Below, one piece after another: positions 36,001 through 45,000 of a DNA stretch of 64,000 nt (the stretch's first letter is position 1; the number at the start of each line of letters is the position of its first letter). A program made the position numbers. The stretch spans positions 640,001-704,000 of the forward strand of contig CAXXNF010000001.1 of NCBI GenBank assembly GCA_963666365.2. Direction: 5' to 3'. This DNA comes from Syntrophales bacterium (lineage in GTDB: Bacteria; Desulfobacterota; Syntrophia; Syntrophales; UBA2210).

Positions 36001-39000
36001 CTTTTCTGCACCGTCGTAGCAACCTTTCTCGCCTTCCATCTCTGGGACGGCTGGCCCTTCCTCTACGTAAAAAAACAACCCTGGCGATTTATCATTTTTG
36101 CCGTAATCAGTCTTGTGCTCGGCTATATCCTGTTCCGCATTCAGCTCTTCGTGTTCGACTACTTATGGGATGAAGCCTATGTGGGCGGCCAGAACGATGC
36201 CAATTTCGGGTGGCGCTACGGTCACACCGTGACAATGGCGAATTTTATCCTTGTAATTGCCCTGATTCAGAACATATACTTCGGGCAGGCCTACGAAAAA
36301 TTGAATGGAATCGTACGGTCCGTCATCAAGACCGTCGTTGCCATCGTGATAGGTCTTCTTTTCGCATGGGCCTATTACGCATGGGGACCGACGCTTCTTG
36401 GCGTATGCGAGGGCGTGTCCCATCCATCGGAAAATGCCGCCGCCTTTTTGATCATGGTCATTAACCTGATTATGATACATGATTACTTTATGGACGGATG
36501 GCCGGGCTATCGACTGAAAAAATAACCGAAGAGAAGAGAAGTATGACCGTAACAGAGCACACCGATCCTGTCGCCGCCGCTGAATCGCTTATGCTTGAAC
36601 TGTTCCAGCATGTGTTTCAGAATGATGCAGCGCGGCGCCATTTCGGTTTTTCTCAGATATCTCAGGTGGTTGATGCGGATGGGCTGCCGCAGTGGTATCT
36701 CTGGTTTTCAGATAAGAGGGGCGCCTACTCCCTGACAATTGTCGAAGGGTGCACGTTGTCCGACAGTTTTGACGCGGCGGCCCACGGTTCAGGCGCCCCT
36801 TTGGTAGAAAGCAGAATCCTTCTCCGTTACTTTCCGGCCATCGAAGAGGACGACTTCGATGCACTGTCCTGTACCGAGCAGCTCTTCAGAATGAGCCCCA
36901 ACTGCGACGCAACCGGCACGCCCTCCTTCGAAGGAGGCGGCGCCATGCATCCAAGTTTCTTTGTCGCCGGACATATGGACATCATCGTCGATTCCTCGAA
37001 AAGGGATGTCGCGTTTTTTTGTGCCGCACCCGACAGATGGCGCGATTATCGTACCGACGGCCTGATTATGACTGATACAACAGGCACACCCCAGCAGGTG
37101 CTCTCGCCCGGAGACATTGACCGAGATTTTCCGGGATGGATGCTGACGTCCTTCTTTTTTGACAAAATAATCTCGGCATTCTGCTGTATGACCGCAGGAG
37201 CGCCCCGCATTGCGGGCGCTGCGATGAAGCGTTCCCGTCACTATGAGATCGACGGGGCGAACCACGTCACCGTCGTCGACGACGACACCATTATGGAACG
37301 GATTTTGGGCGCAGCGTTTTTCGACGCCGACGATGAAGAGACTGTACGAAAGAAGGCGGCATCTTTTACGGAAAGACTCAATTCGAGGGACTACGGACTG
37401 ATCGGCATATGGGAACGGCCCGACGATATACCTGCAGGATGGTGTAATCCGGCATGGTGGACAATCAGAGACAGACATTTTCATGCCGATTCGGACCGCC
37501 TGTGCTCCTGCTATCATGATCATTAGAGGGAAGTGAAAGGACGGCGCGCATCCATGGTCGACAAATCACGTCGAAGCTTTTTTAACGATTATTTTCTGAA
37601 AACCGCAGTCAAATGCATTTCCGAAGGCCGTGAAGCCTATGAAAAGACGAAAAACGATCTGGACTACTTTGATTCTTTCGAATCGGCCTATCCTCTCATA
37701 TCGGAAAGCTATTCTTTTCTTGAGGACGAAGCACAGCGACTTGGAATCGACGTTACGGGCATGACAAAACTAGAGATTGTCAAAGAAATTTACCGAAAAG
37801 ACAATAAACGTTCCTCGCGAACCTAACAGAATGAGTTCTTCGGCACAGGAATCAGCGTGTAAAAAATATTTACATGAATCTTCACGCATCTCTTCGCACC
37901 AAACTGTTCTTAATTCACCTGCTCATGGTCCTTCTTATTGCAGGCAGCATCGGCACATACTTCTCAATGTATACATCTGAGGGGAAATTTTATCTTTTCA
38001 TTCCATATGACCGGTGCGATCATGACGATGACAATCGCCGGGTCAGCAATTCCCGGATCACTTTCGGATTGGCTTTTCCGCCGGAGGTCTGCATGATCTG
38101 ACCGATCAAAAAACCCAGGGCTTTTCCCTGGCCGCTTTTGTAATCGGCCACCGCCGCCGCCTGCGCCGCAAACACCTGATCAATCAGCGATTCGAGCGCG
38201 CCCGCGTCGGACACCTGACCCAGGCCTTTGACTTTCACAATGTCCCGGGGAGCATCACCGGAATCAAACATGCACGACAGCACATCGCGGGCCGCGTTGG
38301 CGTTGATCTCGTCTTTTGCCAGCATTTCCAGAAGTGCGGCCAGTCTTTCCGGCGTCACGGGCGTATGGGAAAGATCCTGGCGACGTTCACGCAGGGCGGG
38401 CAAAAGCTGGGTGGTCAGCCAGTGCATGGCTGCTCTGATCTGGGCGCCCGCGCGAATCAATTCTTCAAAATAGACGGCCGTTTCCGGATCAGTGCTCAGA
38501 TAGGTCGCCTCGTCGGTTGAAAGGCCATACTGGTTGACAAACCGTTCAGCGCGCACTGCGGGCATTTCCGGCAGACGGGCGCGCAGTACCGCAATTTCTT
38601 CGGGTGAAAGCTCAATGACCGGCACAGAGGGATCGGGAACACAGGGGCCCTCAAACTTCTGCCGCATGGGCAGCGTGACTTTCTTATCCGGATCCCACAA
38701 CCGGGTGTGCAGCACCACGGATTCGCCGGCCCGCACGGCCGCGCTCTGACGGCTGATTTCGTAAGAAATTGCATCCCCCACGTGTCGGACGGAATTCATA
38801 TTCTTCACTTCCACCTTGGTGTTCATACGGCCGTCGCCTTTGGGACGGATGGAGATGTTCGCATCGGCGCGCATCGTGCCGTTTTCCATACTGCATTCCG
38901 ATGATCCCACATAGCGCACCTGCGTACGCAGGGCCTTGAGAAACTCCATTGCATGGTGGGGCGTCCGGAAATCCGGCTCGGTGACGATTTCCACGAGCGG

Positions 39001-42000: not shown

Positions 42001-45000
42001 GAGAAATTCCTCGTCGATAAAAGACGCTTCCAGATCGAGCTGTGTGAATTCCGGCTGACGGTTGGGACGCAAATCCTCGTCGCGGAAACAGCGGGCCAGT
42101 TGAAAATAACGCTCCAGGCCGCCGATCATCAGCAGTTGCTTGAACAGCTGCGGCGACTGGGGCAGGGCGTAGAAGCTTCCCGGATGCACACGGCTGGGTA
42201 CCAGATAGTCGCGGGCGCCTTCGGGGGTGCTCATCGTAAGCACGGGCGTTTCCACTTCCACAAAGCCCCGCTCATCGAGAAACCGGCGTACACACTGGAA
42301 AATCTTGTGCCGCAACCGCAGATTGTTTTGCATGACGGGGCGGCGGATATCGAGGTAGCGGTACTGCAAGCGCAGCTCTTCCGAAACCTGCTCCGTGCCT
42401 GACGTTTCGGCGCCCGCTACCATGGCCTTGTCGGATATGACAAAGGGCAGAGGATCGGAGTCGGCCAGCACGGTTACATTCTGTGCAATGACTTCAACAT
42501 CTCCGGTTTCGATATGGGGGTTTTCCGTCCCGGAACGCCGCCTTGTGACTTCGCCTTCCACGGTGACGCAATACTCCGCCCGCAGTGCCGAGGCCGCCTC
42601 GCATACATCCCCGGGGGCAATCTCCGGATTAAAGACAATCTGCACGATGCCGCTGCGATCACGCAGATGAATGAAGATAAGACCGCCGTGATCGCGGTAG
42701 GCATCCACCCATCCGCACAGTTGTACCTGTTGACCAATTTTTTCAGCCGAAATGGCGCCGCAAAAAATCCTCCCGGAAAAGCTCATACAATATATATCCT
42801 TTCTGCTGGAATCGCGTGACGCATACCCGCCTCCCTGGCATGGCTAAAATCCTACCGCTACAGACGGGGATCTCTGCGCGCCGGCGTTGCATTCAACGGC
42901 GCGAGTACTTTTTTTCTTTTACCCCCCCCATCTCCGGGATCGCCGTCCGGGACAGCATAATGCGCATGCCATCCATTGTCAAGGCCGCAGAACCTTTAGA
43001 AAAGAAAACATGGTTGTAGTGTGTCGGATGGCCCGTTCCTCCGGTGTCTCGAGTGGGTCATCAGGAGCAGTGCGCCGTCCACTGATCCATTTCGCGGAAA
43101 AAAGAGTCTGCATCCCTGTAGTGCACGGCCTTCCAACCTTTCTGCCGCGCCCGTTCGACATGCCCGGGGTGATCATCGACAAACACTATCCTTTCAGCAG
43201 GTCGCTTAATCCGGGCAGCGATATCGTCAAATAATGAGGCGTCGCGCTTGCCCTTCCCGATATGGTAGCTGTTGAACACATAGTCGAAGAACTTGAAGAA
43301 ATCATAGGCGGCGTTGAGTTCATCGAGCATATCGATCTGATCGCTCAAGATTCCCACAATCAGATTGCATCCCCTGAGTCGCTTCACGTAATCGATCATC
43401 CAGTCTCGTACCACAAAACGTGAAAAAATCTCCTGACGCAGGGCAGCTTCGTCACCGGAAATGCCCGTTTTCCCCTTGAGAACCCTCCAGAATTTTTTTT
43501 CAGCACCGACGCCGGTGAGATAACCCGTCTCGTAGGCTGTATCGGCTGCCGCTTCCGCAAGCCAATCGCCGTCCAGTCCCTGTGCGCGGGCGATCGCCGT
43601 AAAGCCGTTCTTCCACCCCTCTTCCGCCAGCACCCCTCCGAAATCGAACATCACCACATCAATTGTTTCAGTCTTCCCCATCGGTTTTTTCTGTCCTTTC
43701 TTCCCTGTCATACCGGTCACTGATTGCCTGAACTTCCCCCCTTTTACTCCCATAATGACCTTGACACAAAAAATTTCTCTTCATATAATGCAAAAAAAGT
43801 AAGTAAATCCTTATTATCACTTCAGACAGAACCTTCTGCCCGCTGACGTTACAAAGCAATGAAGGGACCTTTGTCATGACGCGTACCATAATCAATGCAT
43901 TTTTCATTTCTGCAGTTTGCCTTTTTTGTCCGCTTTTTCTGACACAGAGTACCGCCCTTTCCTGCGCTGTCACTGCACAGTCTGTTCCTTACGGCGTCAA
44001 TTCAGCCGGCGAAACCACGACTGCCGATGCCTGTCTCGACAACTATCCCGGCCTGACCTTTTCTCAGGCGGATTTGTATATTCTGCGGCACCAGCTCGAC
44101 TCCCTCCGCTATAACTATGAAGCCTATCGATCAACCATGTTTCAGCATTTCGAAATGTTTCAAGGCGCCTCGCCTTACAGCAACAAAGTAAATCTGGAAA
44201 CCCTGGGACCGCTCTATTCCGAAGACTACAAAAAGATCCTTCAGTTCGCCTCCGGCAGCGGCAGTGATCCCTCCGCCGCCTCACTGATGGAAGAGGCCAA
44301 GGAAAAGATCAACATGGAGGAGATCGTCGCAACAGCGGGAAGCGAACTGTCGGAGAAACTGCTCGAAATGGCGGGGGTCTCCATCATCCTCATGCCGCTG
44401 GATAAATTCAAACAGTGCGCCCAGTTTCTGGCGACGGCGACACTCGACGGACTGAACGGCATGATGGACAACTTCTATACCGGTGCGGCCGAGCTGTACC
44501 TGTTTCAAGCCTGGGAAGATTCCCAGGGTGATGAAATATACAACCCCAACTACACGCTGGAAGAGAATGCCGATCAGACCGCCCGCGTGATCAACGGCAT
44601 GACGAACGCCATTAACCTGATCGAAACGGCCAACGGCCAGTCTTCTTTCAGTTACAGCGCGTCGGTAAGCGAAAACCAAGCGGCCTGGACGGCGCTGGAA
44701 ACGGCGCTGAACAACCAAAAAGGGCTTATTGCCACACTGGACAGCAAGGCACAGACCACGCGGGGAGAATACGGCCTCGGAAGATCAGTGGTGTGGCAGT
44801 GGACAAGCGAAGCCCTGCAAGCGGTCGATATGGATCCTTTGTCGGATGCGGGAGACGTCAACGGCGACGGCGTGACTGAAATGCTGGCCGATGCCATTCT
44901 GCTGGCCTGGAAGATGGAACTCGATTCGCTGCGCGGGACGATCGACCTGCAGCGCGAACTGATCGATGAGTACACCGTTCCGGAACTGGAACTTCTGTCA

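Follow-up and report, generated by a model that had tools for sequence, protein, structure and literature searches.

Why should a genome that already holds a complete canonical pathway to Asn-tRNA carry a second aspartyl-tRNA synthetase (AspRS2) with a GatC-like tail, followed by further copies of GatA and GatB? This cassette lies within the window, the whole 64,000-nucleotide stretch of a Syntrophales genome analyzed here, and free ammonia is probably its nitrogen source for making asparaginyl-tRNA. Its features are as follows.

38020..42786, (-) strand: three-gene set, AspRS2-GatC fusion, then GatA', then GatB2
41002..42786, (-) strand: AspRS2 core, aa 1-595, with OB anticodon-binding domain, class II catalytic core and GAD insertion (PF01336, PF00152, PF02938)
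40939..41001, (-) strand: conserved connector, aa 596-616 (LGLLNLGG.DVLPG...), with L596, L598, L599, L601, L607 and G609 invariant in the alignment of 27 members
40666..40938, (-) strand: GatC-like domain, aa 617-706 and stop, fused in frame to AspRS2 (hhalign, PF02686, BLASTP)
39456..40655, (-) strand: GatA' (399 aa), GatA fold kept, amidase triad replaced
38020..39453, (-) strand: GatB2 (477 aa from ATG 39453; 478 from GTG 39456), kinase/transamidase subunit with YqeY tail (PF02934 and PF02637)
42954..42982, (-) strand: promoter-like site TTGACA-17-TATGCT, ~168 nt upstream of the AspRS2 start (consensus scan, 10/12 matches)

The open reading frames, all on the (-) strand, span 40666-42786 (AspRS2 with its tail, 706 aa from ATG), 39456-40685 (GatA', 409 aa from TTG) and 38020-39456 (GatB2, 478 aa from GTG). 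For the last two, internal starts are more likely: ATG 40655 for GatA', which gives 399 aa and lies 10 nt past the AspRS2 stop TAA (40668-40666), and ATG 39453 for GatB2 (477 aa), which is preceded by AGGGGAGG and lies 2 nt past the GatA' stop TAG (39458-39456). With spacers of 10 and 2 nt, the genes form one conserved unit, in keeping with the three-gene operon proposed in an earlier note on this DNA. An Rfam E-value scan of positions 37000-44500 detected no leader RNA or T-box, and no spare tRNA was found within the window. The GC3 of the cassette falls inside the range of the genome (percentiles 64-89).

AspRS2 is a bacterial-type AspRS (702.8 bits on TIGR00459, cut-off 373.85) that shares 47.4% identity with AspRS1 of the same genome, and its QSPQ, FRDED, HHP, GGGSIR and GMDR motifs are invariant across 27 aligned members. 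Its tail was less obvious, as the Pfam GatC profile PF02686 matched the whole protein with an E value of 0.16. The same profile was matched (E<=1) by 19 of the 27 family members, the best at 1.5e-7, and an hhalign comparison of 101 tails with 21 canonical GatC sequences reached 94.4% (E 9.2e-8), pairing tail positions 22-111 with GatC 6-93 of 93; the connector is N-terminal to this match. The last 19 residues also aligned with the C terminus of the genome's own GatC (BLASTP E 0.003, a value reproduced from the earlier note, where the tail was first called GatC-like). As judged from these comparisons, the last ~90 residues of AspRS2 are a near full-length GatC homologue. The same architecture is described by the NCBI-curated entry NF009460 / PRK12820, 'bifunctional aspartyl-tRNA synthetase/aspartyl/glutamyl-tRNA amidotransferase subunit C', whose 723-position profile aligned residues 1-706 of AspRS2 to positions 18-723 (E 0; 1288.5 bits, just below the curated cut-off of 1379) and matched all 27 aligned relatives. 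The entry is silent on a dead GatA partner. The suggestion that the fusion was not in print therefore fails for databases and stands in a narrower sense, since our literature search returned no paper on an AspRS-GatC fusion or a triad-less GatA. Relatives are mostly annotated as plain aspartate--tRNA ligase or aspartyl-tRNA synthetase, with one row reading 'amidotransferase GatCAB subunit C, partial'.

The second protein, GatA', retains the GatA fold. It scored 164 bits on Pfam Amidase and 212.7 bits on gatA TIGR00132, which is below the cut-off of 481.1 and covers profile positions 142-460 only as the best stretch. Its AlphaFold2 model had a pTM of 0.82, and the top seven Foldseek hits of this model were GatA chains (TMq 0.74-0.80). 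Catalysis by GatA is described as depending on a Ser-cisSer-Lys triad with Ser178 as the nucleophile (PMC2330236). In alignments with the GatA of Aquifex (3h0l_A) and the canonical one of this genome, the catalytic Lys of GatA' is replaced by Gln (AVKDN to ALQSN) and the nucleophile Ser by Glu (DTGGS to LAGE); ~20 aa are deleted ahead of GSSG, and ~50 N-terminal residues are absent. The loss of the triad Lys and Ser, and its conservation in relatives, had both been noted earlier and both hold across the family, in which Gln occupies the Lys position in 118/121 members and Glu the Ser position in 121/121. The cis-Ser column reads A in 119/121 members in an alignment made ambiguous by the adjacent indel, and the protein here reads GSSG. 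Also lost is the Asp that binds the amino group of glutamine (D418 in the yeast enzyme; PMC4027206). Because the Lys and the nucleophile Ser are gone, GatA' cannot hydrolyze glutamine by the amidase-signature mechanism.

In contrast to this remodelled subunit, GatB2 is a canonical equivalog (NF004012, 565.5 bits, cut-off 338). It aligned over its full length with 3h0l_B (415.9 bits) with identical conserved motifs and, by these sequence criteria, looks fully competent. Its identity to GatB1 is 42.4%, in agreement with the 42% given earlier for a second GatB.

The cassette is widespread. Relatives of GatA' occur in at least 259 species genomes, from which we sampled 80 loci bearing nine phylum-level labels. 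Gene order was invariant wherever the contig allowed: AspRS2 with its tail was upstream of GatA' in 76/80 loci and GatB2 downstream in 78/80, the other four and two, respectively, being cut by the contig end. No conserved fourth gene was found, the best flanking cluster being present in 7/80 loci. Within the order, the tail was detected in 25/81 genomes (this one included) and 18/49 genera. Such patchiness had been reported before; the accompanying statement that the same-family genomes (0/3) lack the tail did not hold, as one of five has it (G061). Purifying selection acts on each of the three genes, with dN/dS values of 0.145-0.324 for GatA', 0.029-0.168 for AspRS2 and 0.055-0.173 for GatB2 in the 14 closest of 32 locus pairs retained by a crude filter on the ungapped identity of GatA' DNA. 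The distance matrices of the three proteins were correlated pairwise (61 loci; Spearman 0.49-0.62, with 0/300 permutations as high). Horizontal movement of the cassette is clear: the AspRS tree scrambles the phyla, and loci with the label Thermoguttaceae are separated from those labelled Chloroflexota by a dS of less than 1.

Is the cassette a substitute for the ordinary enzymes? The genome also encodes AspRS1, canonical gatCAB and GlnRS, so that the genes described here are indeed second copies, as had been claimed, and no AsnRS was found in the genome. Canonical GatA was present in all 30 carriers tested, 25/25 from the order and 5/5 from other phyla. A standalone AspRS1, full-length or nearly so, was found in 23/25 carriers of the order, and a full-length standalone AspRS in 4/5 of the others, the remaining genomes (G030 and G078; G081) having contig-cut fragments only. 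Hence the cassette is always an add-on to canonical machinery and, because carriers retain the complete canonical pathway, it appears dispensable for making Asn-tRNA. AspRS1 itself showed no alignment column separating 22 carriers from 23 non-carriers without AsnRS: the maximum frequency difference was 0.39, as compared with a mean of 0.42 and a 95th percentile of 0.52 in permutations. Within the order, the cassette was found in 0/7 genomes with AsnRS, and AsnRS in 0/25 carriers. Outside it, AsnRS occurs in 2/5 carriers, so this non-overlap fails there. The sole tRNA-Asn (GTT) of the genome is ordinary, with U1-A72 and G73 (it starts with T and ends with A-G-CCA), and U1-A72 is the pair reported as required by bacterial GatCAB (PMC4206432); the tRNA-Asp has G1-C72.

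On balance, we lean slightly towards a self-contained Asn-transamidosome with tethered parts, which would dispense with glutamine, probably draw on ammonia, and run in parallel with AspRS1 and GatCAB as the cell's second route to Asn-tRNA(Asn). AspRS2 would charge tRNA(Asn), its presumed substrate, with Asp. The C-terminal GatC domain, held by the 21-residue connector, would strap GatA' to GatB2, the role that free GatC has in GatCAB, where it is reported to be required for GatA folding and GatB binding (PMC2330236). The fusion would therefore tie synthetase and amidotransferase permanently together; such a physical complex of the three proteins is suggested by GatC homology, gene coupling and correlated divergence, and its likely form is (AspRS2-GatC)2(GatA')2(GatB2)2, given the dimeric nature of class II AspRS. 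GatB2 would then use ATP to phosphorylate the side chain of Asp before amidating it. Since GatA' could not split glutamine, the nitrogen would have to come from elsewhere, most simply, by elimination, from free ammonia or ammonium. It might enter where the active site used to be, now remodelled and with Gln and Glu fixed in place of Lys and Ser; in the canonical enzyme, ammonia reaches GatB through a hydrophilic tunnel (PMC2330236). The cassette travels as a unit among anaerobes by horizontal transfer.

Several known systems resemble parts of this arrangement. The non-covalent Asn transamidosomes of T. thermophilus (3KFU) and P. aeruginosa (4WJ3), made of ND-AspRS, GatCAB and tRNA-Asn, share the subunit families of the cassette and the three activities predicted for it; their chains were among the best PDB matches of GatA', GatB2 and the AspRS2 core. 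Those complexes, reported to be held together by tRNA(Asn) (PMC2330236), have a free GatC and an active glutaminase GatA, whereas the cassette has GatC within the synthetase chain and a GatA' without the triad. Canonical GatCAB (S. aureus 2DF4, A. aeolicus 3H0L) is matched by the GatB2 equivalog, the GatA' fold (TMq 0.77 to 3h0l_A) and the GatC 6-93 stretch of the tail, and differs in every GatA' replacement, deletion and loss listed above. AtzG is a GatC-like protein. Together with AtzE it forms a 'vestigial protein complex' derived from GatA-GatC (PDB 6C62, rank 14 in the GatA' fold search), a GatA-type amidase with a GatC-type helper outside GatCAB; AtzE, however, is an active amidase without GatB or tRNA, while the cassette combines an apparently dead amidase with GatB and a synthetase. 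In fungal ErdS, an AspRS is covalently joined to an enzyme consuming its Asp-tRNA (PMC9437257, PMC13219428), but the partner is a DUF2156 transferase, the product is ergosteryl-aspartate, and the system is eukaryotic. As for the nitrogen donor, AsnA and AsnB set a precedent, the former carrying out with free ammonia the amidation that the latter does with glutamine (PMC9437257), although these enzymes act on free aspartate and are architecturally unrelated to GatCAB. No ammonia-only tRNA-dependent amidotransferase was found in our literature search.

The fusion itself being already in databases, what is new here is the spread of GatA', the invariant gene order, the purifying selection, the horizontal movement, the add-on status and the unchanged AspRS1 of carriers. 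If the preferred reading is true, this would be the first natural transamidosome with synthetase and amidotransferase covalently tied, the first tRNA-dependent amidotransferase to have given up glutamine, and a rare example of a complete route of aminoacyl-tRNA synthesis moving between phyla as a three-gene unit. The cassette offers a direct test of the extent to which GatCAB needs an active glutaminase for substrate channelling and for gating of its tunnel, as well as a compact module to install Asn-tRNA synthesis without AsnRS. It also raises the question of why energy-limited anaerobes would keep two routes to one aminoacyl-tRNA. Bench work on these questions is feasible, as one carrier, Syntrophus buswellii DM-2 (locus L080), is in culture.

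Its accessory, patchy and horizontally spread nature, and its constant addition to a complete canonical set, would also suit a back-up that keeps up Asn-tRNA synthesis when the ordinary transamidosome is attacked by glutamine analogues, AspRS inhibitors or Tse8-like toxins mimicking GatA; Tse8 is reported to join the transamidosome as a non-cognate component (10.1101/733030). We consider this unlikely, as the cassette has no conserved neighbours of the toxin, immunity or mobile-element kind in the 80 loci, and its GC3 is within the range of the genome. Such a role is compatible with ammonia use and does not exclude it.

That Gln and Glu are so strictly conserved in the old GatA' pocket could equally reflect a different ligand. 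Members of the family retain the RYD Arg, the SDTGG Asp and the DEF Glu in 121/121 cases, and these residues, together with the fixed Gln and Glu, make the pocket look rebuilt rather than eroded; invariant motifs specific to the family (GLIPSME.CG, GSVEASS.AGRYDSVR, KNWN.MY, QGAfFQF) are located around it. A tethered complex whose pocket binds neither glutamine nor ammonia but some other nitrogen donor, or hands on a different nucleophile, so that the product may not be plain asparagine, is nevertheless quite improbable in our view: no extra biosynthetic gene recurs beside the cassette, the only tRNA-Asn is ordinary with no spare tRNA in the window, and GatB2 is a canonical equivalog. We would give little credence to its boldest form, in which such a new ligand site would lead to part of the tRNA(Asn) pool bearing a group different from asparagine, and the cassette, rather than being a spare copy, would be a horizontally traded module altering the product formed on tRNA.

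That GatA' is a relic, either decaying or with a purely structural role, in an inactive or regulatory complex, for instance one sequestering tRNA(Asn) or Asp-tRNA(Asn), is very doubtful: GatA' does evolve 2-3 times faster than its partners (dN/dS 0.145-0.324 vs 0.03-0.17; identity across loci 48-66% vs 72-87%) and broken copies occur occasionally (GatB2 split in L053, AspRS2 split in L059), but dN/dS is well below 1 in 14/14 pairs, relatives of GatA' occur in 259 species genomes, gene order is invariant in the loci sampled, and GatB2 and AspRS2 keep all catalytic motifs. The truncation of GatA' in L012 is only apparent and corresponds to an assembly gap of 100 N.

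The cassette lies on the minus strand at window positions 38020-42786, where a reading of the ORFs gives three closely packed genes encoding a second AspRS (AspRS2), a GatA look-alike (GatA') and a second GatB (GatB2). These genes, a promoter-like site and the cassette's neighbours are as follows.

40666-42786, minus strand: AspRS2, 706 aa, built like a bacterial AspRS (OB anticodon-binding domain, class II core, GAD insertion)
Start most likely at ATG 40655, minus strand: GatA', 399 aa, 10 nt past the AspRS2 stop, with a Pfam Amidase match
Start 2 nt past the GatA' stop, minus strand: GatB2, with a strong Shine-Dalgarno sequence in front
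168 nt upstream of AspRS2: promoter-like TTGACA-17-TATGCT, from a consensus scan
43061-43753: HAD hydrolase, a neighbour
43876-55443, plus strand: giant surface or secreted protein of 3855 aa, a neighbour divergent from the cassette region
Neighbour: metallo-beta-lactamase-fold protein with a TAT signal

AspRS2 passed the bacterial AspRS equivalog (702.8 bits; cut-off 373.85) and GatB2 was identified as a GatB by the curated cut-off (565.5 vs 338 bits); GatA' reached only 212.7 bits with the gatA model (cut-off 481.1). An Rfam E-value scan of window 37000-44500 returned no match, neither a leader RNA nor a T-box. A search of sequencing runs listed no RNA run that contains this stretch. The remaining neighbours are unknowns, and no functional link of the flanking window genes to the cassette was evident. 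The 3855-aa ORF contains Lcl C-terminal repeats and beta-helix/NosD, InlB B-repeat-like and dockerin-like domains. An asparagine-synthetase-like ORF is found about 36 kb from the cassette, at window 1115-2329 on the plus strand (TIGR01536, 187 bits, below the cut-off of 267).

With AspRS2 taken alone, the Pfam GatC match of its C-terminal tail was weak (E 0.16). The earlier note had reported a BLASTP likeness between this tail and the genome's own GatC, which we reproduced across the final 19 residues (E 0.003); the match appears only in the pairwise comparison, as a search of the tail against the whole genome did not retrieve GatC at E<10. The family of tailed AspRS2 is large and very uniform, with 252 clusters, a length of exactly 706 aa in nearly all of the 120 listed and full-length identities of 72-93% among 27 aligned members. 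At E<=1, 19 of these 27 members matched PF02686 (best 1.5e-7), and one matched TIGR00135 (2e-5). When 101 tails were compared by hhalign with 21 canonical GatC proteins (taken from related genomes, where their genes lie in front of canonical gatA), tail positions 22-111 aligned onto GatC 6-93 of 93 with 94.4% probability (E 9.2e-8). Since this span covers nearly the entire GatC, AspRS2 residues 617-706 correspond to essentially a whole GatC. They are preceded by a conserved connector (residues 596-616), in which L596, L598, L599, L601, L607 and G609 are invariant among the 27 members. A PDB profile search with the full-length AspRS2 alignment was dominated by class II synthetases, with no GatC among the 60 matches listed. 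The fusion had been presented as new, which does not hold for the databases and may hold for the literature: NCBI curates NF009460/PRK12820, to which AspRS2 aligned end to end (1288.5 bits, under the 1379 cut-off), and our full-text search, outside which most subscription journals lie, turned up no publication describing either a natural AspRS-GatC fusion or a GatA that lacks the triad. A 2014 survey describes a second AspRS as rare in bacteria, and its Table S1 lists one aspS and one gatCAB for Syntrophus aciditrophicus SB (PMC4206432).

GatA' was read against Aquifex GatA (3h0l_A) and the genome's own GatA. Relative to both references, the claimed losses in the catalytic triad (nucleophile Ser178; PMC2330236) were borne out, with Gln in place of the catalytic Lys and Glu in place of the nucleophile Ser, as were the deletions of about 20 residues ahead of the GSSG loop and about 50 residues at the N terminus. 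The family alignment has 121 members (this protein and the best 120 of 433 clusters), of which 118 have Q and 3 have S at the Lys position, and every one has E at the nucleophile position. At the cis-Ser position A is found in 119/121, in an alignment that is ambiguous beside the indel. A passage on yeast GatA assigns binding of the glutamine carboxylate to R334 and of its amino group to D418 (PMC4027206). The Arg of the RYD motif is retained in 121/121 GatA' members, and the Asp equivalent to D418 is lost. Judged from these residues, GatA' cannot act as a glutaminase. An AlphaFold2 model (pTM 0.82, mean pLDDT 73.7, with low-confidence loops near the old active site) gave GatA chains as the seven top Foldseek matches (TMq 0.74-0.80), and by this model GatA' keeps the GatA fold.

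The cassette is no relic, as indicated by NG86 dN/dS values of 0.145-0.324 for GatA', 0.029-0.168 for AspRS2 and 0.055-0.173 for GatB2, calculated for the 14 closest of 32 locus pairs past a crude ungapped identity filter (0.72-0.97, GatA' DNA), together with the conservation of motifs in all three proteins. AspRS2 keeps QSPQ, FRDED, HHP, GGGSIR and GMDR invariant in the 27 aligned members, GatA' has invariant motifs of its own (GLIPSME.CG, GSVEASS.AGRYDSVR, KNWN.MY, QGAfFQF), and GatB2 aligned with 3h0l_B along its entire length, the conserved motifs being identical. A truncated GatA in genome G054 was ruled out (100 N inside the locus). Possible frameshifts were seen in two related loci, with GatB2 split over two ORFs at L053:8197-9497 and AspRS2 likewise at L059:4843-6983; these splits are either sequencing errors or occasional cassette decay.

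Elsewhere, the genome encodes a canonical gatC-gatA-gatB, GlnRS, two AsnB-type synthetases and an ordinary AspRS (AspRS1, 47% identical to AspRS2). It has a single tRNA-Asn with U1-A72 and G73 and a single tRNA-Asp with G1-C72. A 98-nt ARAGORN 'tRNA-His(ATG)' without CCA outside the window (contig C2:790224-790321) is probably a false call. No AsnRS was found in the genome, so Asn-tRNA must come from transamidation, and by gene content two complete sets could make it. Across the order Syntrophales, the tail is present in 25 of 81 genomes (this one counted) and 18 of 49 genera. All 25 carriers have canonical GatA (E<=1e-150) and 23 have a full-length or nearly full-length standalone AspRS1, G030 and G078 showing contig-cut fragments only. 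GlnRS occurs in 62/81 genomes of the order and 20/25 carriers. AsnRS occurs in seven of the 81, none of which carries the cassette; within the genome's own family, four genomes have AsnRS and two the cassette (this genome and G061). Outside the order, canonical GatA is present in each of five carriers (labels Dehalococcoidia, Thermoleophilia, Anammoximicrobium, Verrucomicrobiota and Acidobacteria), and four of them have a full-length standalone AspRS (G081 has contig-cut fragments only). Mutual exclusion of cassette and AsnRS was rejected as a general rule: it is true in the order but broken by two of these five carriers, which have AsnRS.

We then compared AspRS1 between 22 carriers, omitting G005 (internal stop) and the fragments of G030 and G078, and 23 non-carriers without AsnRS, picked from 49 with preference for the carriers' families. 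No column separated the two groups; the maximum frequency difference was 0.39 (permutation mean 0.42, 95th percentile 0.52). Because the only AspRS of the non-carriers must serve tRNA(Asn) and the groups are inseparable, the AspRS1 of carriers is probably still non-discriminating. The cassette therefore runs alongside the ordinary route and does not replace it.

A GatA' relative is encoded in at least 259 genomes (pattern scan, one genome per species). The best 80 loci span nine phylum-level labels, namely Thermodesulfobacteriota/'Deltaproteobacteria', Chloroflexota, Acidobacteriota, Planctomycetota, Verrucomicrobiota, Lentisphaerae, Actinomycetota, Polyangiaceae and Competibacteraceae, these being metagenome-bin labels as deposited, possibly erroneous in some cases; Syntrophus buswellii DM-2 (L080) is the one carrier in culture. 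A tailed AspRS2 precedes GatA' in 76 of the 80 loci (the other four end at a contig edge) and GatB2 follows it in 78 (the other two are contig-cut). There is no conserved fourth gene, the top flanking cluster occurring in 7/80 loci. Compared with the window proteins, the AspRS2 core is 75-86% identical, GatB2 72-87%, the tail 52-76% and GatA' 48-66%. By contrast, AspRS1 of Smithella, another member of Syntrophales, shares only about 71% identity with AspRS1 of this genome. Values of dS below 1 were obtained between Thermoguttaceae- and Chloroflexota-labelled loci (0.75-0.90) and between Smithella and Chloroflexota loci (0.71-0.96). In a quick IQ-TREE search (disregarding the row Verruco_G084_A1, a wrongly extracted ORF), 19 fused AspRS formed a tight clade with phyla intermixed (SH-aLRT 98) on a long stem (1.19), and the Syntrophales AspRS1 formed their own clade (99). 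The distance matrices of the three cassette proteins correlate over 61 loci (Spearman 0.49-0.62; 0/300 permutations as high). The cassette is a mobile unit. Its GC3 lies at percentiles 64-89 of this genome, with no compositional trace of recent transfer, so any transfer into this genome would be old.

The most economical reading, in five parts, is a tethered enzyme set that would probably be fed by ammonia. AspRS2 would form Asp-tRNA(Asn), and its fused GatC domain would tether GatA' and GatB2 to the synthetase in a putative complex. GatB2 would activate and then amidate the Asp side chain, with nitrogen that would not come from glutamine via GatA'. Free ammonia would be the simplest source, possibly entering via a rebuilt GatA' pocket. 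Ammonium-rich habitats would fit the origins of carriers as judged from isolate names, several record titles referring to digesters, sludge and sediments. That Gln and Glu are so strictly conserved at the old Lys and Ser positions of GatA' could equally reflect a new ligand. A bypass set that works while the ordinary transamidosome is inhibited would also fit, the cassette being an add-on, patchy and mobile.

Of 63 related cassettes whose upstream DNA is long enough, 28 share a conserved leader (e.g. L040:4787-4868). It comprises a promoter-like TTGAAA-17-TACGCT whose -10 is extended, and behind it the 10-bp palindrome ACAAWTTTGT, present once, or twice at a distance of 17 bp. As an RNA, it matched no Rfam family and showed no covariation (-1.02 kcal/mol, covariation term 0). 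The tandem pattern is confined to the cassette, at one place each, in three of five genomes searched, and the pair looks like a dedicated DNA operator, here putative; the pattern is absent from the leader of the window cassette.

In several Smithella loci, the AspRS1 gene is a few kb from the cassette, either upstream on the same strand (L015, L016) or downstream on the opposite strand (L025, L028, L039). Two genomes of the order encode unfused AspRS2-type paralogues (L008:7925-9802 in G025; L009:7274-9154 in G040), which share 66% and 64% identity with the AspRS2 core and have neither GatA' nor GatB2 in their vicinity. By motif, the genes on either side look like purF and carA/carB. Both paralogues stop about 25 residues past the start of the connector, and the quick tree places them as the sister group of all fused AspRS.
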